This document shows positions 6,674 to 19,413 of a stretch of 64,000 nucleotides of DNA, one piece after another. Positions within the stretch are counted from its first letter, which is position 1; each line of letters begins with the position of its first letter. Source of the stretch: Escherichia phage vb_EcoM_bov11CS3. Both the position numbers and the translations under genes were made by a program. The stretch lies in sequence record MT884009.2; one strand, given 5' to 3'. A model generated the notes under the pieces. The model ran no database searches and was not told the origin of the DNA. It worked only from the letters and a program-made list of their open reading frames with translations.

Positions 6674-6686
6674 CACGTTTTTGAGG

Positions 6687-6715
6687 TTGACATCTGTCGA
6701 GGCACTTGATAAGAT
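6687..6715 (+). promoter_or_regulatory. sigma70-like promoter for the rightward gene block
   Basis: TTGACA 6687-6692, 17-nt spacer, TAAGAT 6710-6715; about 30 nt upstream of the ATG at 6747. Confidence 0.4.
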
Positions 6716-6746
6716 TTCTTCACCTGCAGAGCACGAGAGACAACTC

Positions 6747-7724
6747 ATGAATCTTGAAAAATATTATACACCAGAAGAGTTAGAGCGCCTGCTCAAAAAA
6801 TACAGACGCAAACAAAATAATGCACGGAAACGAGATATAGAGTTCAACCTGTCATGGGAAGAATACCTCCTATTTGGTAAAAAACTTTTAGGAGAGGGGG
6901 TATGCGACTATACCCTTATACCTTTCGACATGCACACAGATGAAAACGGGCTGGGGAATCCTTTCTACCCATCTCTGGAGCGGATAGATGATGAAGGTCC
7001 TTACGCAATTGACAATTGTTGTGTGGTAGGGTTGAGGTGCAACGCTCTGAAAGACTGTCTGGTAGATAAAAAGACTGCAATATTGATAAAAGACAAAACT
7101 GATCGAAAAATTGTCCAGCAGATGATGCTTCACCTGAGCGAAGAGCGTATGGAGAAATTGAAAGGTGATTATACTTTTGAAGATTTCATCTTGCAATATG
7201 GGACAGAAGAAGATAAACTAGCACTTTTTGACGAAGAGGAAGAAGATATGTCACCAATGCAGGACTTTAAAAATTTCATGGCTGATCGTGCAGCCAACAA
7301 ACACATTTCAGACATCGTAAACGAAACTGTGACAGAAGAAATTGGAGAACAGAACTCTGAAGAGGAAAAAGAGCCTCAGGAGGTCGAAGAGGAGATTGCA
7401 GAAGAGGTTCCTGCACTGCCTGATGATGTTGAGGTTGCTAAGGCTTACACTTTCTATTGTCAAACGTTCTACGATGCAGGTATGAAAGTTGATCTGTCGT
7501 TCAGCCAATTTAAGAGTTCGTATGTTCGCAAATGCTGTGCTTTAACTGGTGAACGTCTCGGAGCTGGACTTAAGCCCCTGTTAGTGACCGACTGGAATAA
7601 AGGTTTCACCAAAGGTAACTTTATGGTAGTATCTCCAATTATGGAGAAAGCTATGACAGATCTTATGAAGACCACCCGCATGACAATGACAGAGTTGGCA
7701 GGTATTTTCAAACACGTTAAATAA
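6747..7724 (+). CDS. hypothetical protein, 325 aa, with acidic region; possible degenerate HNH/EndoVII-like segment
   Basis: Start moved from track TTG at 6681 to ATG at 6747. Segment SLERIDDEGPYAIDNCCVVGLRCNALK resembles an HNH beta-beta-alpha motif but lacks the first His. Acidic tract EEEEDMSP...EVEEEIAEEV. Confidence 0.5.
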   Translation: MNLEKYYTPEELERLLKKYRRKQNNARKRDIEFNLSWEEYLLFGKKLLGEGVCDYTLIPFDMHTDENGLGNPFYPSLERIDDEGPYAIDNCCVVGLRCNALKDCLVDKKTAILIKDKTDRKIVQQMMLHLSEERMEKLKGDYTFEDFILQYGTEEDKLALFDEEEEDMSPMQDFKNFMADRAANKHISDIVNETVTEEIGEQNSEEEKEPQEVEEEIAEEVPALPDDVEVAKAYTFYCQTFYDAGMKVDLSFSQFKSSYVRKCCALTGERLGAGLKPLLVTDWNKGFTKGNFMVVSPIMEKAMTDLMKTTRMTMTELAGIFKHVK

Positions 7725-7729
7725 TGACA

Positions 7730-7744
7730 GGGGCCATTGGCCCC
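7730..7744 (+). terminator. GC hairpin (possible terminator/attenuator) after the 325-aa gene
   Basis: GGGGCCATTGGCCCC palindromic stem directly after the stop at 7722-7724, followed by TTCTGGAGTTTT, which also contains the RBS of the next gene. Confidence 0.35.
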
Positions 7745-7757
7745 TTCTGGAGTTTTA

Positions 7758-9218
7758 ATGGATAGCAGAAGTTCAGAAATCATTGCCTCACAAAAAGATG
7801 ATGCCCTGAGAATGTTGCAGGCTGCACGTATGTATCTCCTTGAAAAGCTGCCGTTTTACGGCACACTGCTGTCAGGGTTGCAGTTCGTAGAAAACCACAC
7901 ATGGTGCTCCACCATGGCAACCGACCATAAACGCATCTACTACAGCCCCGAATTCATTATGGGATTGGCAGATGAGCGCAAAACAATTCTTAAAGCATCT
8001 CTGACTGACGAGCAGTTTGAAATGGCTGAGGTTTTCTATTCCCCTAAATCTGTGAAAGAGGTGGCCTTTCTTCTGTCACATGAGGTGGGGCATATTATCT
8101 GTGATCACCTAGTCCGTGGTAAAAGCTTTGAGCCAGAGCTGTTCAATATTGCTTGTGATCACGTTATCAACACAGGCCTTGTGGTGGACTTTAGCAAGCC
8201 TCCTTGTGTTTTCTTCCCGAAGGGGAAAAGCACTACGTTCGTAAAAGGTAAGCCTTTTGGTTTCTTAGCCAGCTGCTACTGCGACATGAGGTTTCATGGA
8301 TGGATTGCTGAGAACGTCTATGCAGTTCTTGATAAGCAAAGAGATCAGAATAACGGTAAAAGTAAGAGTGGTAAAGGTGATAACTCTCAGGGGGATAAGC
8401 GACAAACCGATGATCACATGAGTGGGAACGGTGGCACCAGTGATGATCTCGGAAAGGCTATGGGGTATGATCAGCCACAACCTGTAATCAGCCAATCTGA
8501 TAAAGATCAGGCCATGCAAGACTCTGGTGACATGCTGGAAGCAGCAATGCAAGCTTCTGGAGGTAGTTGCCCTGAGGCGGTGCGTGAGTTTGTCAAGAAC
8601 AGAGGTAAGCCTGTAATCAACTATATAGACATCATTAAGCAACGTATGTTGTCTAAACGAAAGGCTGAACTAACCTACAGAAAGCCTGGTCGCCGATCTG
8701 GATCTTTGACCAGCACAATGCGAAAAGTTGGGGCTATAAACAAGAACCAGCACGTTATTGTTCCTGGTCGTAATCCGGAAAACACTATAGATATTGTGGT
8801 GGCTTTAGACGTTTCTGGCTCGATCTCTCAAAGAACTTTAAAGAAAATGTTCAATGAGATCACCGGATTGTGCAATCTGTATAAAGAGTTTAAGGTTACG
8901 ATGTTCTGTTGGTCAACCGAGGTTGGAGAGGTCAAAGTATACACTCGCGGCAACATAGACGAGATGATCAACTATGAGGTCCACTCAACATGGGGCACAA
9001 CAGCTGCTTGCGTGTTCGAGTATCTGGATGCCAATATACCGAATGCAAAAGATGTCATCGTCCTGACCGACCTATACTTTGAGCATAACTTTGAACAAAA
9101 GGCTGTTGACAACAAGTGGAAAAAGTACGATACTTTATGGGTTCTCACCGAGGGGTATAATAAAAATTATATCCCGAGCTTTGGGAAAACTGTGGAATTA
9201 ATCGAATACGCCAAGTAA
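7758..9218 (+). CDS. vWA-domain protein with N-terminal HExxH metallopeptidase-like domain (DUF2201/CobT-like), 486 aa
   Basis: HExxH in SHEVGHIICDH; vWA MIDAS-type motif DVSGSIS plus downstream TWGTT and LTD. Start moved to ATG 7758 (GGAG 5 nt upstream). Confidence 0.7.
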   Translation: MDSRSSEIIASQKDDALRMLQAARMYLLEKLPFYGTLLSGLQFVENHTWCSTMATDHKRIYYSPEFIMGLADERKTILKASLTDEQFEMAEVFYSPKSVKEVAFLLSHEVGHIICDHLVRGKSFEPELFNIACDHVINTGLVVDFSKPPCVFFPKGKSTTFVKGKPFGFLASCYCDMRFHGWIAENVYAVLDKQRDQNNGKSKSGKGDNSQGDKRQTDDHMSGNGGTSDDLGKAMGYDQPQPVISQSDKDQAMQDSGDMLEAAMQASGGSCPEAVREFVKNRGKPVINYIDIIKQRMLSKRKAELTYRKPGRRSGSLTSTMRKVGAINKNQHVIVPGRNPENTIDIVVALDVSGSISQRTLKKMFNEITGLCNLYKEFKVTMFCWSTEVGEVKVYTRGNIDEMINYEVHSTWGTTAACVFEYLDANIPNAKDVIVLTDLYFEHNFEQKAVDNKWKKYDTLWVLTEGYNKNYIPSFGKTVELIEYAK

Positions 9219-9233
9219 GAGAGGACGTTATTT

Positions 9234-9491
9234 ATGGCAACAGAAGTAGTAATCAAATCTGAACGCCCAGTTAAAAAAGCTATCAACACGTTCCCTGTGG
9301 GAACCATTGTGAGCATGATCACAGAGTCAGGCCGTGTATCTACGCTGCTGATTGTGAAATCTGCATGTTCTTCTTGTGTGTGGGCTTACGATCTGGACGA
9401 GAAAGAACTAAAAGATTTTGTTGGGGAGCTGAAAGCAACAGAGCTCGATGCTCGTATCGAAGTATTTGGTGAAACTGTGGAGGAAGAGTAA
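9234..9491 (+). CDS. hypothetical protein, 85 aa
   Basis: ORF track; tightly packed in operon. Confidence 0.5.
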   Translation: MATEVVIKSERPVKKAINTFPVGTIVSMITESGRVSTLLIVKSACSSCVWAYDLDEKELKDFVGELKATELDARIEVFGETVEEE

Positions 9492-9754
9492 TGACCACGA
9501 AAATCACTATTGCAGAACCGAAAGCTAACACGCAACCTATCGAAAAATTTAAATGTGGTGAGGTGGTAACATTTACACCAGATAATGAGGATGCTAAGAT
9601 TTTCGCCATGGTCACAGCTGAGTGGATGTGCGACAATACCACACAGGTTCTGCGTTTTGACACCTATCTTACAGATGAAATCAGGAACGACAAGATCGTG
9701 ACTGGTGTTGATACTGAAATTGTTTTCTACAAGAGCTTTTTAGAGGGTTTCTGA
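9491..9754 (+). CDS. hypothetical protein, 87 aa
   Basis: ORF track; start overlaps previous stop. Confidence 0.5.
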   Translation: MTTKITIAEPKANTQPIEKFKCGEVVTFTPDNEDAKIFAMVTAEWMCDNTTQVLRFDTYLTDEIRNDKIVTGVDTEIVFYKSFLEGF

Positions 9755-9755
9755 T

Positions 9756-9989
9756 ATGGCAAAAATTCGTAAATTATCCAACAATCAGGTTGTGAAAGAC
9801 TTTGAATCTGGAGAGATTCTTTATGTTCGTGATGCAGATGACGAAGGTGAAGATCTTGTTATGTTGGTAGGGCACGCTGAGGACGGATGCATCCAAGCTG
9901 TTTTTCTTGAAACAGCTATGGTGCACTGGATAGAGCTGGACCTGAAAGCACGAAAACCTAAAGCAGAAATCTTGATTTACGAAGATTAA
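9756..9989 (+). CDS. hypothetical protein, 77 aa
   Basis: ORF track. Confidence 0.5.
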   Translation: MAKIRKLSNNQVVKDFESGEILYVRDADDEGEDLVMLVGHAEDGCIQAVFLETAMVHWIELDLKARKPKAEILIYED

Positions 9990-10005
9990 CAAAAAGGAGA
10001 GAGCC

Positions 10006-10455
10006 GTGTTGAGCAAACGTGAATGCGACAGCATTAGCCTAAATTCTTATAAGAAACAATGGTTTGGGGTGGAAGTTTGCCGACTGCGGCTAGGCTCCTA
10101 CCTGAACTTCGTTTATTATGAGAGCGACAGCCGTATCGTTTCTTATGAAGTGTTCTACACTAAGAACACATTCGAACTGCGCCGTAAAGCAGAGGGAGGG
10201 AGAACTACCACCCAGAATAATTGGGAAACTATTCTGCCTCCAGATGTTATAGGAAGTCCCCTGAATGTATCTGAAGATGAAAATCTTATGGTTCATGCTA
10301 TGATGGGACTTGACAGCTTAGAGCTGGCGATCTATGATATGTCCATCGAAGCAGTTAAGCTGGACTACATCGAAAACACTTTAGAGGAAGGTATCAAGAA
10401 GTTTCTCAGTGAGAAATTAAAAGATCACTTTCATAAGGAGCTATACCTGTTATGA
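10006..10455 (+). CDS. hypothetical protein, 149 aa (GTG start)
   Basis: AAGGAGA at 9994-10000, 5 nt before GTG at 10006. Confidence 0.5.
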   Translation: MLSKRECDSISLNSYKKQWFGVEVCRLRLGSYLNFVYYESDSRIVSYEVFYTKNTFELRRKAEGGRTTTQNNWETILPPDVIGSPLNVSEDENLMVHAMMGLDSLELAIYDMSIEAVKLDYIENTLEEGIKKFLSEKLKDHFHKELYLL

Positions 10456-10697
10456 AGACTCGTAAAGAACGTAACAAAATTTTACCTGGAGCTCTCGAAC
10501 ACCTGATGAAGTGCAGATCTATTTGGCACTCTGCCAAGGAAGGGCAGAAGGTGGTTGTGGTTAGTGACAATACCAACCCGTTTGGAGATTATACCACTAT
10601 GATGGCCCCATATGTCCGTGATGGCGTTGTGGAAGTGGTCCCTTACAACGGTCTGCATGAACGGCACTTTGAAAGCACTTTGCTAGTGGAGCTATAG
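10452..10697 (+). CDS. hypothetical protein, 81 aa
   Basis: ORF track; 4-nt overlap with upstream gene. Confidence 0.5.
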   Translation: MKTRKERNKILPGALEHLMKCRSIWHSAKEGQKVVVVSDNTNPFGDYTTMMAPYVRDGVVEVVPYNGLHERHFESTLLVEL

Positions 10698-10699
10698 TC

Positions 10700-11266
10700 A
10701 TGGCGGTCAATGTGGCTTACAACACAGGAAAGCTTGACAGAGACATTGGGTGTCTTGTCCTTTCAGATACAGAAGAGTATTGGGGTTATGGGTTGCTGTC
10801 AGACCCACACCCGAGCAACCTTGTATCAACAGTGCTATACCGCTACGACCCTGTGCCAACGGTACACGACAAAGACATTCACGACCTTCGGATCAAGTGT
10901 CTGGAAGATCTGCTGAACAATGGTTGCAACGATCTGCAGGTAGCCAAGGAGAAGCTTACAAACATTCACAAAGAGGAAGTGATGAGCACCCTTAGTAAAA
11001 GATCAGTGCACAAAAAGATGATGCTGAACTTTGCAATGGGTATCTACATGGACGGGTATAAGGGAGGGGATCCGATCCTCAAGCTTCGCTGCCCAACACT
11101 GTGGGAAAGAGTGGTTGACAGTAAGGACGGTACTGCCCTGCTCGAACTCCACACTGCAGGTTGGATTTGGCGGTATGTAGACGGATACCCTTTATGGGCA
11201 TGTGGGCCAGGGGAATTTGTTGACAGACCTAGCGCGGTGGTGGATTTACTATTGCAGTTTGAATAA
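10700..11266 (+). CDS. hypothetical protein, 188 aa
   Basis: ORF track. Confidence 0.5.
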   Translation: MAVNVAYNTGKLDRDIGCLVLSDTEEYWGYGLLSDPHPSNLVSTVLYRYDPVPTVHDKDIHDLRIKCLEDLLNNGCNDLQVAKEKLTNIHKEEVMSTLSKRSVHKKMMLNFAMGIYMDGYKGGDPILKLRCPTLWERVVDSKDGTALLELHTAGWIWRYVDGYPLWACGPGEFVDRPSAVVDLLLQFE

Positions 11267-11323
11267 AAAGGTGAGTTATAAGGTATTCATACACCTACCA
11301 ACAATACAACAGGGGAGACTGAC

Positions 11324-11599
11324 ATGACAAAAGAAGAGGCCGACGTATTAGATTTTGCACTAGAGGCTACGCAGGAGGCTTTGGTGTTAGCTTGGAAAAT
11401 GAACCAGCGTGCTGCAGAATGCAACCACCGCATCAATGAGATTCTGGGAATGTCTATGTATGATTTCACTATGCATGCCGGAGAGATTCCTGAATTAACT
11501 GCAGAGATGAATGATCTTGACAATAAAATTAATATCATTCTGAAGACAGCAGAAACAACTCACCAAACCGCCCGTAAATTTATCAACGAGAAGGTGTGA
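11324..11599 (+). CDS. hypothetical protein, 91 aa
   Basis: ORF track. Confidence 0.5.
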   Translation: MTKEEADVLDFALEATQEALVLAWKMNQRAAECNHRINEILGMSMYDFTMHAGEIPELTAEMNDLDNKINIILKTAETTHQTARKFINEKV

Positions 11600-11601
11600 A
11601 T

Positions 11602-12066
11602 ATGGACTACAGCTACTGCGGGGAAGAAGTTCCTTTTAACTACAGCAATCTTACCACGAGCAATCCATATGAGACTCGCCACGGCACACACATCATTGCC
11701 ATTGACTTTGATGGAACGTTTAATGCGAGCCCTTTCATCTTCTCCCGCCTGATCAGGGATCTGAAGAAGGAGGGGTGGACAGTCTACCTTGTGACTTCCA
11801 GATTCATTACTCAAGACAATGTAGACATTGAGTATTGGCGCAAGGAGCTTGATGTTGGTGTGTTTTATACTGGAGGTGTTCAGAAGGCAGCCTATCTGGC
11901 GCAGTTTGATATCTACCCAGATATCTGGATTGATGATTCTCCGGCATGTATTCCGGCTAAGAATCAGTTAGAGTTTGCAATGAAGGAGATCGAGTATAAG
12001 TCTGAGGCTAAGCGGAACGGATGGCCCTTTATTATTGAAGATTACCCAGATCCTGAACCGGAGTAA
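11602..12066 (+). CDS. HAD-superfamily phosphatase/nucleotidase-like protein, 154 aa
   Basis: HAD motif I IIAIDFDGT (DxDGT), motif II LVTSR, motif IV WIDDSP. ATG at 11602. Confidence 0.6.
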   Translation: MDYSYCGEEVPFNYSNLTTSNPYETRHGTHIIAIDFDGTFNASPFIFSRLIRDLKKEGWTVYLVTSRFITQDNVDIEYWRKELDVGVFYTGGVQKAAYLAQFDIYPDIWIDDSPACIPAKNQLEFAMKEIEYKSEAKRNGWPFIIEDYPDPEPE

Positions 12067-12071
12067 GAGCC

Positions 12072-12242
12072 ATGAGGCGAAGATATCATTACCTGATGTG
12101 GAAGTTATATCAAAATGCTGCCAAAGCCTATCATATCATGTTTGGCAATGACGATCACTACATCATGTTACATCTCACCGCTATTAAGCATCACAATGAG
12201 TGGATTCATGCAATCGTGGCAGGTGATAAAGACTTTAAGTAA
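12072..12242 (+). CDS. small ORF, 56 aa (not in ORF track)
   Basis: ATG 12072 to TAA 12240-12242, read manually; GGAG 9 nt upstream; fills an otherwise empty gap. Confidence 0.3.
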   Translation: MRRRYHYLMWKLYQNAAKAYHIMFGNDDHYIMLHLTAIKHHNEWIHAIVAGDKDFK

Positions 12243-12369
12243 GATATGCCTTAAAACGCAACAGGAGTCCCTGTAGCGCACTTAACTCACCGCAGGTATA
12301 AGATTGCATTGCTGGGTAGTTTTGTGCGTTATTTTTAGTTACATAGCTTTCTAGACGGAGACCGATTAA

Positions 12370-12750
12370 ATGTGCAAGTGCAAATCCTATAATTGGAAAG
12401 TGAAAGGTGCCAAGCATCCAAATGTTATCGTTGATGTGCCTAAAAAACTTCGAGACGGCAAAAAACGTGTGTGCCTTGATAAGTGCATGGCTAAGCCTAT
12501 CATGAGTCTATGGGCGGCAGGATTGAAAACTCTAAACTGCTGCTGTGGTCATAACAAAGATGTTCCAAGCATCATTATCCCAGAGGATGCAGACCCTAAA
12601 GCTTATGCCAAAATATTGACCCGCTACCCCAGCACCTTTCTGATCGGAAAATGGTGTCACGATGAACTTCAATGGTGGATAGCGTACGGCAGTGTAGGTG
12701 CTGCTTTTGGCTTCCCAGCTTTGTCAGAGCGCTACGTCAAAGCATCATAA
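12370..12750 (+). CDS. hypothetical Cys-rich protein, 126 aa
   Basis: ORF track; multiple Cys (CKCK, NCCCGHNKD). Confidence 0.5.
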   Translation: MCKCKSYNWKVKGAKHPNVIVDVPKKLRDGKKRVCLDKCMAKPIMSLWAAGLKTLNCCCGHNKDVPSIIIPEDADPKAYAKILTRYPSTFLIGKWCHDELQWWIAYGSVGAAFGFPALSERYVKAS

Positions 12751-12856
12751 TCTGTTTTAAGGCCTCAAACGAGGCCTGTGCCTTCAATAACTCTACCCTC
12801 CCTTGTGATTACACCCACCTTTCAAAAAACTTCCCCAAAACGCTTAAAAAATGTTG

Positions 12857-12886
12857 TTGACAGCACACACCCCAGTTTGCTATTCT
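12857..12886 (+). promoter_or_regulatory. near-consensus sigma70-like promoter
   Basis: TTGACA 12857-12862, 18-nt spacer, TATTCT 12881-12886, A-rich upstream tract; GGAG at 12907-12910 precedes ATG 12920. Confidence 0.5.
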
Positions 12887-12919
12887 CATTATCACAGATA
12901 CAGAACGGAGTAACAAAAA

Positions 12920-13249
12920 ATGGCACATGTGAATATTAAACTACATTATCATGGTAGAAAACCAAAATATCCAATGCATAAAGTATTTTGGGGGTTGCAT
13001 ATCCAAGAAAAAGAAGGTATTGGTTACTGGTTTTGTGACCACGATAGACAATGGCATACCCATGAAGAAGTGTGCACTATGATAGAGCAGGGTATTAAAT
13101 TTAATTTCTCAAACTATGATCATGGTGTTAATTGCATTCGAAAATTGAAACGATTTCTTAGAAAGAATCCTGAACTTAAAGGGCTTACATTCTTTATGTC
13201 TCATAACTACATGGGGTATAGCGCTACTGTAACTGCAAGGATTAAGTAA
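12920..13249 (+). CDS. hypothetical His/Cys-rich protein, 109 aa
   Basis: ORF track; follows promoter and RBS; low-GC segment. Confidence 0.5.
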   Translation: MAHVNIKLHYHGRKPKYPMHKVFWGLHIQEKEGIGYWFCDHDRQWHTHEEVCTMIEQGIKFNFSNYDHGVNCIRKLKRFLRKNPELKGLTFFMSHNYMGYSATVTARIK

Positions 13250-13250
13250 T

Positions 13251-13469
13251 ATGAGCAAAGTAAAATTTGTTAAATTTAAAAATCCTAACGGAATAACAGC
13301 CCTTATGATGGGTGTACACTTTACACCGGGCAAAGAGTATGAGGCAGATGTATACAATGGGATAGATGGTAAAGTTGGGATAGGTGTGTGGACAAACCGT
13401 GGAGAAAGATACTTTATCAAGGATATGGATGCTCACTGGGGTATTTGGGAAGTTGTTGGAGATCTGTGA
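13251..13469 (+). CDS. hypothetical protein, 72 aa
   Basis: ORF track; 1-nt gap to upstream gene. Confidence 0.45.
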   Translation: MSKVKFVKFKNPNGITALMMGVHFTPGKEYEADVYNGIDGKVGIGVWTNRGERYFIKDMDAHWGIWEVVGDL

Positions 13470-13538
13470 TGATGAAATGAAATACTGTTTCTTCGGCAAT
13501 ATGTAATATAGATTGGTTAAATATGGAGACTGATAGAG

Positions 13539-13739
13539 ATGGCTGATTTTTGTAAAGACTGTTCTGAAGAGTTGTTTGGTCGTGACTGCGGAGATCTGAA
13601 AGGATTGATCACGGAGAAGCAGTGGAAGGAAGGTTATGCGGCACCTGTTATCTGTGAAGGCTGTGGTTACACCTATGTCGATCATGAAGGTAAGCGTGTC
13701 CAGCCGTCTGAAGATGGGTCGTGTTGGGAATATTACTAA
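13539..13739 (+). CDS. small zinc-ribbon-like protein, 66 aa
   Basis: CxxC...CxxC pattern (CKDC ... CEGCG); GGAG before ATG. Confidence 0.45.
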   Translation: MADFCKDCSEELFGRDCGDLKGLITEKQWKEGYAAPVICEGCGYTYVDHEGKRVQPSEDGSCWEYY

Positions 13740-13743
13740 TTAT

Positions 13744-13778
13744 AAAAAGAAAGGGGCCAAACGGCCCCTTTTTATTTT
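13744..13778. terminator. bidirectional Rho-independent terminator between convergent blocks
   Basis: AAAAAGAAA-GGGGCCAAACGGCCCC-TTTTTATTTT: GC stem with A-tract on one side and T-tract on the other. Confidence 0.6.
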
Positions 13779-13785
13779 CCTCCTG

Positions 13786-16700
13786 TTAACTAGGGAAGTT
13801 TGTATAAGCTTCGAGATGGTATTGCTGGTTACCAGGTAGCATAACACCTATGCTTGCAATACCTAATGTTCTACCACCAGGGTTCCACTGAAACTTAAAT
13901 CCAATCCAACCCGAGCTTCTGGCTGCATCAATGTTGTCACTGTACCCAAAAGTGGCTAGACCATCAACACCTGCTCCGAAAAGCAGTTGTATCTGGTTCC
14001 TTGGTAGGCCAATAATTTCAGGTATGTAAGCACCAAAAAATGTAGGGTTGGTGGTTGTGGTCGGATTGTTCATTACCGGACCGGTAAAGACCCTCATATT
14101 AGACGTTCCTGCAGGTCTAGGGTAGGCCCCGTCAAGAGGATTTCCTTCCCAAATAAACCACTGAGGTGCCATCTGTTTGACAGTGAATGATGTTGAGGAC
14201 GTTTTGCGGCCTGCATCATCTGTAACTACAAACTTTATGGTGACATTCCCAGTAGCTTTAAATGTTACCAGTCCTGTGGTAGCATCCACTGTTGCAATGT
14301 TGGTATTGCTACTTTCCCAAGTCTTTCTAATCCCAGATACGTTGGAAGGGGTAATAGAAGGTTCCTGCATCTGCAGTTGACCACCCACAATCCCTATGCC
14401 GTTGCCAGGATTATACAGTGCACCAACCTCGTCTATAATGTTCCCTGCTTTGAGACTATACTTCCTTGAGAAATTGTAGGTTCCGTTATAAGTGTGTGTC
14501 CCTGAGAAGGTGACATCTGCCTTCCCGTAAGAGATGCAAACCAACGCATACTTCCTGTCAGGCAACGTTTCTCCAGTCTCTGGGTGAGTTTTACCCACCT
14601 GGAACACGCTCGGGTCAGTAGAGTCGTGACTATCGCTAATGGAGCTTGGACCGCCCATCAACTGTGACAAACAATTCCTTACCCATGTCCAGTTATTATC
14701 ACTGGAGAAGTCCACAGTCAAATCAAACACAACCCACTCATTCGGCTTCCACACAGGTGTTGCAATGGACTTGCCTACACCGCCTCCTTGGAGTGTTGCC
14801 GACTGTTCGGTGATCAGGGCCGCATAGGCCAGAGTCCCTAAACTCAGAGTCTGGCTTGCTGTCCTTACTACCTTAGAATCAGCATCTGTGAAGTTGTTGA
14901 TGATTTGGAATGTGCCATAAGTGTTTTTACAGGTAATTCTGGCGTTCAGTGTGTCAATCTTCCTCACATCTGCCATAGCAGTGTTAGACACAGAGAAGTC
15001 AGAAGCTTTAGCTGAGTTTGCCGCAACAGCAGGATCAACGTTAAGAGTTGCGTTGAACTGACAGGCAGGGGTAACCAGCAGCTTGTTATCACCTATTTGC
15101 TTCCATGAAACACTTTGAACAGGGAGATTCCATTTAATACCTGAGAAAACCTTAGCAACCCTTGGCCCCAAAGCTCCAGTCCTGTTGTCTTTACAGCACA
15201 TAGACATGGTGATCGTTGACGGAGTGGCCTGACCAAATAATTGCTGTGCTTTTGCAGAGGACATGGTGTAGAAATTGTCCTTAACAAACTCATCAGCGGC
15301 TAAAGATCCATCAGCCCTCCACCACTGGACCTGATACCCCGTTTTATCCCAACCACCGACCTGCTTCAAGTCCTCCCAGGAGATTTCCAGATCCCCAGTG
15401 GTAGGGTTGATTGCAGCAGTTCCCGGTGCTCCTGGTGACCACAATGGGATATCGAACCACGCTGGTTTAACCGACTGCACTGCATTAGGACCTATTGCAG
15501 CAGCAAGTTGTTGACCCATCAGCACGCGAGCATCTTTCACCAGGCCCCATTCTATCATAGACCCAGAGTAACCTTCTTTCTTGTAGGCAGAGGATCCGTT
15601 CAAATGGATGAGCCTGCTGCAGTCGAAGCCATACGCTCCACCACCGTTAGGATCTGCAAAGTTGGTTATGATTCTATCCCTAATATTTTTCCATGCCCTA
15701 CCTCCAATCTCGTAGTCATGGTCATAACATCTTTGCAACGTTGTCCAGCAAATGATTGCCATTCTTCTGCCACCTGTGAACCCGAAAGCGCCGTCATTCA
15801 GCTCTTTCCACAGGTAACAGTTGGTTGTCCACATAGCCCTGTGGATATTGAACCAGTTTATAGATTTAGCGGAGTTGTTCCACTGAGTTCCGGGTAATTC
15901 AGGCCACACTGCATTGACTAGCATGTCCTCTGTACCGGCATCCATTAAGAAACCTCTTACCTTCTTGCCCATACCTACCCTGTCTTTAGCAATCCAATTG
16001 CCAAACAGTCTCAGTTTTGGACCATAAACAACATCCTCTGGGTGCTCAAAAGAGACATACTTTAAATAGATTGTTGGGTCACCGTAGGTGCCATCACAAA
16101 CACTTTTGTGCATGTTTTCGCCAAGGTCTAGACGAAGCCCCGTCACTACTTTAGACGTGTCGGTGAATTTGTCTGTTAAGTCAAATTCATACCACCACCA
16201 CCCGCCACCTAGCATAAATTTCTTGCATCGCACAGCGTCTGTGTCAGATATTCTCTTATCCCCTGCAAAAGGTGAATCAGCAAACTGATAGTGCAGAGCA
16301 GTCTCAAATAGGTGGGTGGAAGTTCCGTTCTCTGCAAGAACTTGCTTACCTATCAGATCGCACTTAATGATCATCACAACACGCTTGTATCCGTTTGTTA
16401 CCGGAACTTGCATAGATATGGATGTTCCATCCATGTTCGATCTTAGATCACTCATGATGATATAGGGGTCGACAGCGTTACCTAAAGTTTCAGGCCCTGG
16501 AATTATCTTGTATTTCTTGACCTGGCCCATAAATCTGTCACTGGCGTAAGTTGCAGCCTCAAAACAAGAGCCACCACCAGGTAATTCTCCAGGTCCCCAG
16601 AAAAATGCCCCGTAGCAGTTATAGAACCACTTATTAGGATCGTATTTGTTCTTGAAGGTCTGGACCTCGTTGGCCTGTTTTGTCAAGAAAACCTGCGTAT

Positions 16701-19413
16701 CTGTAAAGATTGCAGGATTTACCCTTGCCTGACGCGGAGGGTAACCTGTAGTTTGGTTAAACCACAAATTACAAGAGTAATCCCTCATATAGTCATAATC
16801 AGAGTATTTGTTTACATCTTCGTTCCAACACATGTTTAGGTTGGTACCGCCCATGCATACAATATATTCTGCGACATACTTATCACTTCTGGTAGGAATA
16901 CCTATGAACCATCTGTTAACAGGCTCATCCCAAGCTGTGCGCTCATCTTTAACGCAGATAGCAATCCAGTCATGTGTTCCTGTTTTCTTGCACACATCGC
17001 GCTTCATACCGTAGTAGAACTCTTTAGTATTTGGCTCAGGTGCGCTTATCAGGTAGCTCCACGCCTGGTCTGCATAGGTTCCGTTGGTGCGAGGGTCATG
17101 ATCAAAGGCATACATGATGATCCTTTCCCCACCAAGATGTTCGCCAAGAGTAACTTTGACATTAACATCGCCGTAACCGTTGCGAACAACATCCATATTG
17201 TCAATAGAGATGCCTCTAGGGGTATAGGCAATCTTCAGCGAGTTATCCTCACTAGTGCCACCAAGTGTAATCCCTATGTTATTTGTTGTCCCGTCGGCAT
17301 ATCTTACTGTAGCTTCCCAGCGTATTCCGAAATATCCTACATCATGGCTGACAATTTTCAGTGTACGAGCGCCAGGGTGAGGTTTTCCAGGATCAGGCCA
17401 GGGGTCTGGGTGTTCGTGGACAGTCAACGACGTTCCGTTTTGCTCGTTAACCTGCAACATTTTACCACCTCTGCCGTTAGGGTTGAACTCCCATACGGCC
17501 TGTGTCTGCACCAAGTTGTTGTAGGTATTTCGTCTCTGATCATAAATCTCTTGGGTAACATCATAAGTGACTGATCCAGCATCCATTCTGTGGAGTCTGA
17601 CCATATACGATGTATCCCCTTCTACTGCAGGCTGAGTCCCATTCAGTCCGAAGTATACAGTATCGTTGACATGGAACTGTTTGTTTCTACCGACAGTATG
17701 CCACTTGCCGTTGGACGGATACGCAGGAACTATGGTGTTCCAGTTCAAAGTCCTTGTCGTGTAAGTTCTGCCTGTGCCATGCTTGTCATGATAGGTTATT
17801 TTTACAGAGTACAGGCCACGTCTGTTAACATTTCTGTTATACTGGGTAACAACAACTTCGTTGGCCCCGCCGTGGTTCCAGTTGGTGGAGAATTGGTAAT
17901 TTGCATCTGTAACAACCGTGCCTGCAGCATTTACCAGCTCAATCTTGTCAATAATGAACGTAGCCCCTTCTGGCTGAGGCTTCAATTTCATCTTGACCGT
18001 GTCACCAATGTAAATATTGCTAACGCTGCTAACACCGTTAACGTCGAAAATATCATCAACACCCCAACTGTCTACTGGGACATTTTTATACCAATTCTCA
18101 GGAACCTCTGTGAACCCCTGACTGTTAAGTCTGCCGCCAAACAGGTTGTTAGAGCCTGCAAAACTTCCCCTTGGGATGCCTGACCACCAAAGTTTACCAT
18201 TAACAACAGTAAAGGTCCCTAAGAAGCCTTCCCTGTGGATGCCTTGGAAATAAACACTCTCTGTCCAGCTAACTGGCAGGCGTTGCTCAACATATTTAGC
18301 TGTAGCAAGAGCTTGATAGTGGATAAAATTGGCCCTAGGGCTATTGTTTGCAGATTGTGCACCAATATCATTACACAAGTTGCGAGAGAATCCACGATAC
18401 TGCTTAGTGCCATTATTGAAGAAAATGCCACTTGTGCCGTACCCACGAGCCATTATTACCTCATGGGTGTAGGTGATATTTAAGGAACGCCATGTGTCAT
18501 CTCCCCAAACGTCTTGCCCGTAGAATACGTTAACAAGCTGCTGGTCATCGGGTCTATGCATCCTCTGTGTGGCAATTATTGCCCCGTTAGGACCACACAT
18601 AAACCCTTTCCACTCCTCATCTGCAGGAATGCCCCTCAAATCGTTACGAGTGATCTGCACAGGAGGCCAAACAAGGTCGTTTCTACTGTTATTTCTCAGA
18701 AAGTCGTATCCAGCAATCCAGAAGCCCCTAGGGCCACCGAAAATAACAGAGTTGTCATGCACCTCGCAGTTGATGCTTGGGTTTTTCCAAGGGCCTGTTT
18801 CAGGATTTTCCGATGTCTCACCGATCTTTACAGGGGTTGCATGCTGATTTTTGTCAACATGAAGAGAGCCGTAAGTATTATTGCCAGAGCCGTACAGGTG
18901 AAGCATACCATCAGCCTCTGGTGCAGCAATTACCCACACTGTATTGTTTACGCCACCCATTACTTCAACAAGTCTCTCAGGATGGGTGTCCAAATGCAAC
19001 CCTGTTACGATCTGTTCCGGCAAAGGTGTCCACTCTCTGACACAAACATCGTTTCCACCTGCTGCCTCCGATCCGATAAGACCAGCTGTGCAACCAATAT
19101 AGAAAAATTTATTATCGAATGTGCGGATTACAAATGCACGGTCAGCTCTCCAAACATGGTCTACGTTCCAAGCTGCCTCATTAGGATAGTTTATTGTATC
19201 AAGATCTCCAGTCCGACACTCTCCGAACCTATTATAGCCAGTAATATTAAGCTGACCATCATCAAAAAGTATAGCTAAGCTATTTACATAGGATACTGTG
19301 TTGCTTGTACCATCACTGTTGTCTATTGGGTATGACAGAACAGCAAGTTCCTTAATTCCACCCCTCTTATCGAGGAAATGACGACCAAGTTTTAGCAAAG
19401 GGATTGGAAGCAT
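13786..19413 (-). CDS. very large virion protein, 1875 aa, putative tail fibre/spike; N-terminal RCC1-like repeat signatures
   Basis: Last gene of the late operon; GGAG before ATG 19413; motifs such as LHLYGSGNNTYGSLHV resemble RCC1-type propeller repeats. Confidence 0.5.
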   Translation of the reverse strand: MLPIPLLKLGRHFLDKRGGIKELAVLSYPIDNSDGTSNTVSYVNSLAILFDDGQLNITGYNRFGECRTGDLDTINYPNEAAWNVDHVWRADRAFVIRTFDNKFFYIGCTAGLIGSEAAGGNDVCVREWTPLPEQIVTGLHLDTHPERLVEVMGGVNNTVWVIAAPEADGMLHLYGSGNNTYGSLHVDKNQHATPVKIGETSENPETGPWKNPSINCEVHDNSVIFGGPRGFWIAGYDFLRNNSRNDLVWPPVQITRNDLRGIPADEEWKGFMCGPNGAIIATQRMHRPDDQQLVNVFYGQDVWGDDTWRSLNITYTHEVIMARGYGTSGIFFNNGTKQYRGFSRNLCNDIGAQSANNSPRANFIHYQALATAKYVEQRLPVSWTESVYFQGIHREGFLGTFTVVNGKLWWSGIPRGSFAGSNNLFGGRLNSQGFTEVPENWYKNVPVDSWGVDDIFDVNGVSSVSNIYIGDTVKMKLKPQPEGATFIIDKIELVNAAGTVVTDANYQFSTNWNHGGANEVVVTQYNRNVNRRGLYSVKITYHDKHGTGRTYTTRTLNWNTIVPAYPSNGKWHTVGRNKQFHVNDTVYFGLNGTQPAVEGDTSYMVRLHRMDAGSVTYDVTQEIYDQRRNTYNNLVQTQAVWEFNPNGRGGKMLQVNEQNGTSLTVHEHPDPWPDPGKPHPGARTLKIVSHDVGYFGIRWEATVRYADGTTNNIGITLGGTSEDNSLKIAYTPRGISIDNMDVVRNGYGDVNVKVTLGEHLGGERIIMYAFDHDPRTNGTYADQAWSYLISAPEPNTKEFYYGMKRDVCKKTGTHDWIAICVKDERTAWDEPVNRWFIGIPTRSDKYVAEYIVCMGGTNLNMCWNEDVNKYSDYDYMRDYSCNLWFNQTTGYPPRQARVNPAIFTDTQVFLTKQANEVQTFKNKYDPNKWFYNCYGAFFWGPGELPGGGSCFEAATYASDRFMGQVKKYKIIPGPETLGNAVDPYIIMSDLRSNMDGTSISMQVPVTNGYKRVVMIIKCDLIGKQVLAENGTSTHLFETALHYQFADSPFAGDKRISDTDAVRCKKFMLGGGWWWYEFDLTDKFTDTSKVVTGLRLDLGENMHKSVCDGTYGDPTIYLKYVSFEHPEDVVYGPKLRLFGNWIAKDRVGMGKKVRGFLMDAGTEDMLVNAVWPELPGTQWNNSAKSINWFNIHRAMWTTNCYLWKELNDGAFGFTGGRRMAIICWTTLQRCYDHDYEIGGRAWKNIRDRIITNFADPNGGGAYGFDCSRLIHLNGSSAYKKEGYSGSMIEWGLVKDARVLMGQQLAAAIGPNAVQSVKPAWFDIPLWSPGAPGTAAINPTTGDLEISWEDLKQVGGWDKTGYQVQWWRADGSLAADEFVKDNFYTMSSAKAQQLFGQATPSTITMSMCCKDNRTGALGPRVAKVFSGIKWNLPVQSVSWKQIGDNKLLVTPACQFNATLNVDPAVAANSAKASDFSVSNTAMADVRKIDTLNARITCKNTYGTFQIINNFTDADSKVVRTASQTLSLGTLAYAALITEQSATLQGGGVGKSIATPVWKPNEWVVFDLTVDFSSDNNWTWVRNCLSQLMGGPSSISDSHDSTDPSVFQVGKTHPETGETLPDRKYALVCISYGKADVTFSGTHTYNGTYNFSRKYSLKAGNIIDEVGALYNPGNGIGIVGGQLQMQEPSITPSNVSGIRKTWESSNTNIATVDATTGLVTFKATGNVTIKFVVTDDAGRKTSSTSFTVKQMAPQWFIWEGNPLDGAYPRPAGTSNMRVFTGPVMNNPTTTTNPTFFGAYIPEIIGLPRNQIQLLFGAGVDGLATFGYSDNIDAARSSGWIGFKFQWNPGGRTLGIASIGVMLPGNQQYHLEAYTNFPS

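Follow-up and report, generated by a model that had tools for sequence, protein, structure and literature searches.

The 64-kb window analysed here (the whole 64,000-nucleotide stretch of Escherichia phage vb_EcoM_bov11CS3, MT884009.2) derives from a Vequintavirus, an rV5-like myovirus of Escherichia coli, and its matching relatives are all Vequintavirus. Between a predicted promoter and a predicted intrinsic terminator it carries three small genes, ORFs A, B and C (Table 1), each with a GGAG or AGGA ribosome-binding site approximately 9-10 nt upstream of its start. The three genes that a sequence-only reading had proposed for this cassette are present, each with its Shine-Dalgarno site, with the qualification that the middle one is what remains of a 125-135-aa gene. 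A longer co-directional block, which opens with an Srd-like anti-sigma gene, has the cassette as its distal end. Across a gap of 46 nt from ORF C, the cassette faces a converging minus-strand tail-fibre gene (13786-19413, 1875 aa). Positions 12700-13800 are matched by 111 phage records and are 100% identical to phage vb_EcoM_bov22_2 (MT884010.2); Bas54 (MaxBurger) carries the allele of the window, with 97.9% identity over the cassette region. Two minus-strand ORFs (13242-13685 and 13109-13420), which overlap the conserved plus-strand genes, were treated as spurious.

Table 1. Features of the promoter-to-terminator unit and its upstream border, numbered from the first nucleotide of the window.
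Feature	Position	Strand	Description
Conserved hairpin	12760-12777	+	AGGCCTC-AAAC-GAGGCCT, directly 3' of the stop codon of the 126-aa gene
Divergent exchanged block	12786-13538	+	Promoter region, ORF A, ORF B and remnant
Sigma-70-type promoter (predicted)	12857-12886	+	-35 TTGACA (12857-12862), 18-nt spacer, -10 TATTCT (12881-12886)
ORF A	12920-13249	+	109 aa, 13.2 kDa, pI 9.6, 10 His, 3 Cys; phrog_12630
ORF B	13251-13469	+	72 aa; N-terminal part of the 125-135-aa protein phrog_15992 (rV5 gene 25)
Non-coding remnant of the 3' end of gene B	13470-13538	+	30% GC; aligns with the 3' end of the 135-aa gene
ORF C	13539-13739	+	66 aa, pI 4.4, 6 Cys; phrog_2210, orthologue of rV5 gene 26
Bidirectional intrinsic terminator (predicted)	13741-13782	both	Stem 13748-13773 (GGGGCC/GGCCCC) with A and T runs, loop AAAC

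Both signals that frame the cassette in the sequence-only reading, a near-consensus promoter and a bidirectional terminator, were recovered. The promoter hexamers score 10/12 and are accompanied by an extended -10 TG (12878-12879, one base ahead of TATTCT). The pattern TTGACA-N16-18-TAnnnT is enriched in the window (11 occurrences versus 2.7 +/- 1.7 in shuffles); a generic promoter scan of the neighbourhood returned 28 sites versus 22 +/- 5 expected, no better than chance. The terminator was called on both strands (-18.8 and -17.7 kcal/mol) as a GC-rich stem-loop between converging genes, with an A-run before the stem and a T-run after it, and by its position it is common to the plus-strand early unit and the converging tail-fibre gene. 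Its stem is identical in eight phages, in which the loop is AAAC, GTTT or GTCT. An Rfam scan of positions 12300-14000 gave sub-threshold matches only, all of them on the terminator. A literature search found no transcript mapping for any Vequintavirus, and the use of the promoter, its early timing and the termination are all predicted.

The hairpin upstream of the promoter (-13.1 kcal/mol, z = -3.3) forms the left edge of a high-identity flank, and its stem, too, is identical in eight phages, with TTTT as the loop in FV3. Lacking a proper T-tract, it could serve at best as a weak terminator or as an RNA-end hairpin. For the same reason the cassette is also the distal end of the transcription unit that corresponds to genes 11-26 of rV5, and read-through into it from upstream is likely.

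The anatomy of this frame was already predicted in 2013 for the type phage rV5. The rV5 genome paper (Kropinski et al. 2013, PMC3606486) proposed four transcription units, one of which comprises genes 11-26, separated genes 26 and 27 by a bidirectional terminator, and listed in Table S4, at the place homologous to the cassette, the promoter P025 (TTGACA...) and the terminators t026/t027 (GGGGCC....GGCCCC). The promoter of the window corresponds in position to P025 and its terminator to t026/t027; TTGAC of the -35 hexamer is kept in 8/8 aligned phages, with spacers that differ. Genes 25-26 of rV5 thus resemble the cassette in their location at the end of unit 11-26, where they face the Ig-like tail-fibre gene 27, and in the -35 position, the terminator stem and the orthologous 66-aa gene. 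They differ in that the place of ORF A and the 72-aa stump is occupied in rV5 by one gene of 135 aa, gene 25; the N-terminal domain of gene 25 is only approximately 50% identical to ORF B, and the promoter region approximately 67%.

Comparison of the approximately 113 Vequintavirus records indicates that all of them possess the promoter-to-terminator unit, but that its interior is polymorphic. Three alleles were distinguished: an rV5-type allele (86 records), consisting of the 135-aa gene followed by the 66-aa gene; an FV3-type allele (three records: FV3 twice, and HMD-6), consisting of an 85-aa gene, ORF A, an intact 125-aa gene B and ORF C; and the window-type allele (24 records). A divergent allele with ORF A is therefore carried by 27 of the approximately 113 records. 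In pairwise and three-way alignments with AlexBoehm (Bas56, rV5-type), the promoter region of the divergent block matches at approximately 67 of every 100 columns and the rest of the block at 16-64 per 100, whereas its flanks are 93-100% identical between alleles. In all of these records, homology across the alleles extends to the position of the promoter, to ORF C and to the terminator. Because TTGAC of the -35 hexamer and the terminator stem are kept from allele to allele, the frame is fixed and the interior alone has been exchanged: the promoter, the 66-aa gene and the terminator constitute a genus-wide frame around a hotspot of recombination, for which at least three alleles exist. No donor lineage of the divergent block was found.

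The history of the window allele can be read from FV3, whose locus (FV3_00023 to FV3_00026) has the same promoter hexamers, ORF A (95%), the same allele of the N-terminal domain of ORF B, ORF C and the terminator, but retains the 85-aa gene and the intact 125-aa gene B. Relative to FV3, the 85-aa gene is missing from the window exactly between the near-identical strings AAAATGTCAC and AAAATGGCAC. ORF B has lost a C-terminal domain of approximately 45 aa (phrog_3955-like), and alignment of the remnant that follows it shows a deletion of approximately 90 nt relative to the 135-aa gene. The alignments show both the junction of the deletion and the shortened gene B, and the window allele is a reduced derivative of an FV3-like arrangement, a case of reductive evolution. 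In the sequence of events that these alignments suggest, the divergent version of the locus would have gained a two-gene module (the 85-aa gene and ORF A) known also from RB49-like phages; the 85-aa gene would then have been precisely deleted between two AAAATG(T/G)CAC microhomologies, placing ORF A directly behind a strong ribosome-binding site, and approximately 90 nt would have been lost from the 3' part of gene B as well. MaxBurger has in addition a TGG-to-TGA nonsense change at codon 63 of ORF B, and ORF B is probably a decaying stump without present function. The remnant still provides the GGAG ribosome-binding site of ORF C; its predicted RNA fold (13470-13538) is not significant (z = -0.15).

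Base composition is uneven across the cassette. Positions 12857-13778 have 38.4% GC versus 44.4 +/- 1.9% for stretches of equal size in the window; only 0.3% of such stretches are as GC-poor, and the minimum of the window (922 bp) begins at position 12831. The AT-rich character noted in the sequence-only reading is nevertheless not a property of the whole cassette. ORF A is lowest among 69 ORFs in both GC (34.5%) and GC3 (30%), and the low GC of the cassette traces to ORF A, ORF B (39.7%) and the 70-nt remnant, whereas ORF C (46%) is normal.

ORF C is the conserved core of the unit. Its dN/dS of approximately 0.09 shows strong purifying selection, and it is found by tblastn in 833 phage records, among them Vequintavirus, Felixounavirus, T5-like phages and phages of Pseudomonas and Stenotrophomonas. 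The earlier description of the 66-aa product as zinc-ribbon-like stands: in its CxxC (5, 8) ... CxxC (39, 42) arrangement, C5, C39 and C42 do not vary among 39 diverse family members, and more than 90% of these keep C8. In an AlphaFold2 model (pLDDT 87), C39-x2-C42 lies at the hairpin turn between strands 35-39 and 43-47, and C5/C8 start helix 6-13. Sequence and model thus agree with a zinc ribbon or zinc knuckle, from which zinc binding itself is predicted. The fold matches of this model are uncharacterised phage proteins only; no neighbour of solved structure was found, and the hits to S27e and XPA in the PDB were non-significant. A profile search extended the family to at least 362 clusters, none of them named or with a Pfam domain. 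The homologue of T5-like phages lies inside a tRNA cluster, and because the neighbours of ORF C vary between phages, gene context yields no functional lead. The best guess is that ORF C encodes an acidic zinc-binding adaptor.

ORF A, the second member of the Cys/His-rich pair pointed out earlier, has a much narrower distribution. It has relatives in only two coliphage groups, Vequintavirus (27 records, at least 95% identity) and the RB49-like Krischvirus (59 records, full length at 57-69% identity). When 1.84 billion representative proteins were searched with its profile, only its own cluster and three fragments came up, and no distant relatives. The gene is intact and free of frameshifts in 86/86 records, and its dN/dS is approximately 0.17-0.21 (approximately 0.17 against Krischvirus, at saturated dS), from which it follows that ORF A encodes a real, constrained protein under purifying selection. 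Nine His/Cys positions are invariant in the family, and C39-x-H41, H46, N62/N65 and H68-x3-C72 are conserved. It matches no Pfam family at E <= 1, sequence and profile searches of the PDB gave no significant hit, and the AlphaFold2 model (pLDDT 57) is too poor for a fold search. The best guess is that ORF A encodes a basic, His-rich and probably metal-binding protein.

In Krischvirus genomes and in metagenomic contigs the ORF A homologue always lies between the baseplate genes gp8 and gp9, in the order terminator, promoter (TTGACA-17-TATAAT), 85-aa ORF, ORF A, methyltransferase (279 aa, MTS/Eco57I-like), terminator. This gp8-gp9 cassette (RB49, Phi1, GEC-3S) is similar to that of the window in its full-length ORF A homologue, its consensus sigma-70 promoter, its closing terminator and its low GC (approximately 34% for ORF A in both contexts). 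It differs in the 85-aa gene before ORF A and the DNA methyltransferase gene after it, in its location within a late structural cluster, and in having neither ORF B nor ORF C. The 85-aa protein of FV3 is 70% identical to its Phi1 counterpart, and its gene overlaps ORF A by 13 nt in both FV3 and Krischvirus. Because the same pair with the same overlap is present in both, the module of the 85-aa gene and ORF A has moved between unrelated virulent phages; divergence of ORF A in step with the genomes is impossible to reconcile with the fact that Vequintavirus and Krischvirus share no other DNA.

Taken together, the cassette is best explained as the final part of the non-essential early gene block, the counterpart of rV5 genes 25-26 in unit 11-26; we put the probability of this explanation as a whole at about 0.75. 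It is a moron-like, ordinary phage accessory region, in that its gene content varies, in three alleles, between conserved flanking genes of close relatives. The accessory regions described by Silas et al. 2023 (bioRxiv 10.1101/2023.04.06.535777) are comparable in their variable small genes between conserved flanks, their sharing between unrelated phages, their atypical composition and their own transcription signals. If the predicted signals operate as proposed, the sigma-70 RNA polymerase of the host would start at the internal promoter, with some read-through from upstream, and the transcript would encode three small cytoplasmic proteins and end at the intrinsic terminator, which would also end the converging late transcript of the tail-fibre gene.

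All three genes are accessory, and none is essential on K-12 or laboratory E. coli. Their Bas54 counterparts (bas54_0044 for ORF A, bas54_0043 for ORF B and bas54_0042 for ORF C) are covered by the HIDEN-SEQ transposon study of that phage (bioRxiv 10.1101/2025.11.20.689424, Extended Data Table 8), in which bas54_0042 (insertions at 9/9 TA sites) and bas54_0044 (29/31 TA sites) were called non-essential; bas54_0043 (15/19 TA sites) was called 'reduced fitness', yet has the top read counts among bas54_0041-0045. When K-12 was compared with a clinical isolate in the same study, bas54_0042-0044 were not depleted (log2FC +0.12 to +0.47, adjusted p = 1), a result that stands for one clinical-isolate comparison, sheets S6 and S7 being numerically identical where compared and the first naming the 311 file under the 303 label. 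The adjacent tail-fibre gene was depleted in this comparison, as were two validated anti-defence genes. The anti-defence genes that the transposon screen identified in Bas54 are bas54_0063 and bas54_0140, both outside the cassette (bioRxiv 10.1101/2025.11.20.689424); as they were found elsewhere, and none in the cassette, the conjecture of counter-defence is weakened for the hosts tested.

The layout of the cassette had also been likened to host-takeover or anti-defence cassettes, of which no sign was found. Pfam, NCBIfam and PADLOC scans of the three ORFs and their relatives returned nothing at E <= 0.1 to 1 (PADLOC models the proteins of defence systems, not anti-defence proteins), sequence and profile searches of the PDB returned nothing significant for the cassette proteins, and the Bas54 orthologues tolerate insertions. 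The cassette proteins are likewise absent from the text supplements of the screen by Silas et al. 2023 (bioRxiv 10.1101/2023.04.06.535777), and they are not known to counter defences or to trigger cell death. A role of the cassette proteins in host interaction or counter-defence is plausible, at slightly less than even odds; ORF A and ORF C would then act on factors of hosts or competitors that are met only in some natural hosts. The anti-defence part of this is a guess, against which there is one weak negative result. Less probably, the proteins would assist in DNA or RNA transactions of the phage.

A more specific proposal is that ORF A, its 85-aa partner and the methyltransferase of RB49-like phages might form a mobile module directed against restriction or DNA-sensing defence, and that ORF C might be the founding member of a zinc-binding family targeting a factor conserved across Gammaproteobacteria. 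This is an unlikely combination. The ORF C family (at least 362 clusters, 833 phage genomes) spans T5-like, Felix O1-like and rV5-like phages, among others. A related reading is a mobile counter-restriction or epigenetic module in which ORF A would have the methyltransferase as its partner in RB49-like phages and, in the phage of the window, would serve one of the other methyltransferases of that phage or act alone. The Krischvirus unit is tightly built, the starts and stops of the 85-aa ORF, ORF A and the 279-aa methyltransferase gene overlapping or abutting between one promoter and one terminator; Bas54 has methyltransferases elsewhere (bas54_0070 and bas54_0074), and the basic ORF A product is rich in conserved His and Cys. 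In Vequintavirus, however, the ORF A module travels without the methyltransferase, gene neighbourhood is the sole link, and mutants of bas54_0044 were not depleted in the one clinical isolate, all of which makes this module doubtful.

Similarly doubtful is the view that the block's interior has no present function and is decaying, ORF B being a pseudogene stump and ORF A a hitch-hiker. The truncation of ORF B, its further nonsense mutation in MaxBurger, the loss of the 85-aa partner and the tolerance of all three genes to insertions point in that direction, but the description probably fits ORF B alone: ORF A has remained full length in every record under the selection described above and apparently gained a strong ribosome-binding site after the deletion, and ORF C is under strong purifying selection.

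Morons are autonomous inserted transcription units of temperate phages, expressed from the prophage to the benefit of the lysogen; variable small genes, horizontal sharing, atypical composition and own transcription signals are found in morons and also in the plastic periphery of T4-like genomes. The resemblance to a moron that the sequence-only reading had seen extends to the layout, with a predicted promoter and terminator of its own where two converging gene blocks meet, to the atypical GC of ORF A and ORF B (34.5% and 39.7% versus 44.4%), and to the sharing with Krischvirus, where gp8 and gp9 flank a unit of this kind that contains the relative of ORF A. That the cassette is a classical moron, a whole promoter-genes-terminator unit inserted in one piece between two older genes, is nevertheless improbable. 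The unit as a whole is not cleanly absent from close relatives, which vary only in ORF A, in the 85-aa gene and in the allele of gene B; the composition of ORF C does not deviate; and the promoter and terminator, being homologous throughout the genus, were not imported with the genes. The cassette, described earlier as self-contained, has its own signals but is also the distal end of unit 11-26. From a lambdoid moron it differs in that its transcription signals lie outside the mobile piece and in that this phage is virulent, so that no lysogen exists to express a moron. Vequintaviruses being described as lytic (PMC3606486), the lysogen-benefit feature of morons probably does not apply to them.

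A small selfish nuclease of the HNH/His-Me finger type, whose homing would explain the patchy distribution of ORF A, would suit its many histidines, the conserved His, Cys and Asn positions listed above and its location between conserved structural genes of T4-like phages, like that of free-standing homing endonucleases, but is very improbable for a protein of only 109 aa that matches no HNH, GIY-YIG or other Pfam family at E <= 1 and no PDB entry significantly and whose low-confidence model has no clear beta-beta-alpha metal finger.

The cassette matters little alone, but the phage genus has uses in therapy and biocontrol, and gene flux is documented here for one of its hotspots: insertion, precise microhomology deletion, truncation and nonsense mutation can all be seen at this one locus. 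It also draws attention to two protein families, one narrow and His-rich (rV5-like and RB49-like coliphages only), the other broad, with a CxxC...CxxC signature and no Pfam entry. The transposon library of Bas54 is saturated, and the BASEL collection includes natural allele variants of the locus (Bas52 and Bas54 versus Bas56 and Bas58), so that the function of the cassette is cheaply testable.

The C-terminal domain that is missing from ORF B (phrog_3955, phrog_11192 and phrog_36005), which AlexBoehm retains as the last 45 residues of its 135-aa version, is a small shuffled domain, with matches of 40-55% identity in many unrelated enterobacterial siphophages and podophages, where its relatives are sometimes annotated as "putative fusion protein". 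In the RB49-like phages, the interval between the baseplate genes gp8 and gp9 holds a self-contained cassette, ordered as a terminator, a consensus sigma-70 promoter, an 85-aa ORF, a 109-aa homolog of ORF A, a DNA methyltransferase and a second terminator. The 85-aa gene may be disrupted in RB49, where the annotation splits it into a pair of short ORFs (51 and 32 aa).

The bidirectional terminator has a 4-nt loop whose sequence differs between phages. The window shares AAAC with FV3, rV5_ev158 and HeinrichReichert; MaxBurger, RudolfGeigy, phiWec193 and rV5 carry its reverse complement, GTTT, and AlexBoehm carries GTCT. The loop variant does not track the cassette allele, and its variation looks like inversion of a hairpin loop within a perfect palindrome.

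The orthologs of the early gene block in MaxBurger (bas54_0042 to bas54_0056) were every one called non-essential, with bas54_0043, the ortholog of ORF B, tagged "reduced fitness" (bioRxiv 10.1101/2025.11.20.689424). Among the genes of the block are one for an Srd-like anti-sigma protein and one for a putative metallopeptidase; the ortholog of the latter (bas54_0055) showed depletion in a clinical isolate, with a log2FC of -2.20 (adjusted p = 0.009; bioRxiv 10.1101/2025.11.20.689424). The 156-aa ORF at window 11596-12066 has only weak, HAD-phosphatase-like matches (E about 0.02). On the converging side, the ortholog of the tail-fibre gene (bas54_0041) was non-essential on K-12, with insertions at 281 of its 336 TA sites, but showed depletion in the clinical isolate, with a log2FC of -2.23 (adjusted p = 0; bioRxiv 10.1101/2025.11.20.689424).

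Coordinates of the cassette's neighbours, its terminator loop and related loci in other phages
Feature	Location	Strand	Remarks
Early gene block	window 6681-13739	+	
156-aa ORF	window 11596-12066		"polynucleotide kinase" in the rV5_ev158 annotation
Terminator loop	window 13758-13761		
Lateral tail fibre	window 13786-19413	-	1875 aa, Ig/intimin-like domains
Last 45 residues encoded by the 135-aa gene	AlexBoehm, locus extract L003 2485-2619		absent from the window
RB49-like cassette	GEC-3S (NC_025425.1), locus extract L012 1162-2693		
RB49-like cassette	Phi1, locus extract L011 1256-2672		
RB49-like cassette	RB49, locus extract L005 2267-3669		

Among the deposited records, about 15 GenBank entries named "Campylobacter phage" (MG0656xx), which give C. 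jejuni as the host, match E. coli vequintaviruses with 96-99% identity across the cassette locus, and are probably mislabelled or contaminant assemblies. In Extended Data Table 8 of the transposon study (sheets S6 and S7; bioRxiv 10.1101/2025.11.20.689424), the sheet with the label K-12 versus CFE303 bears a console line with a 311 data file name, and the sheet that follows it has rows with the same figures; therefore, one of the two clinical-isolate comparisons seems to be missing or duplicated.
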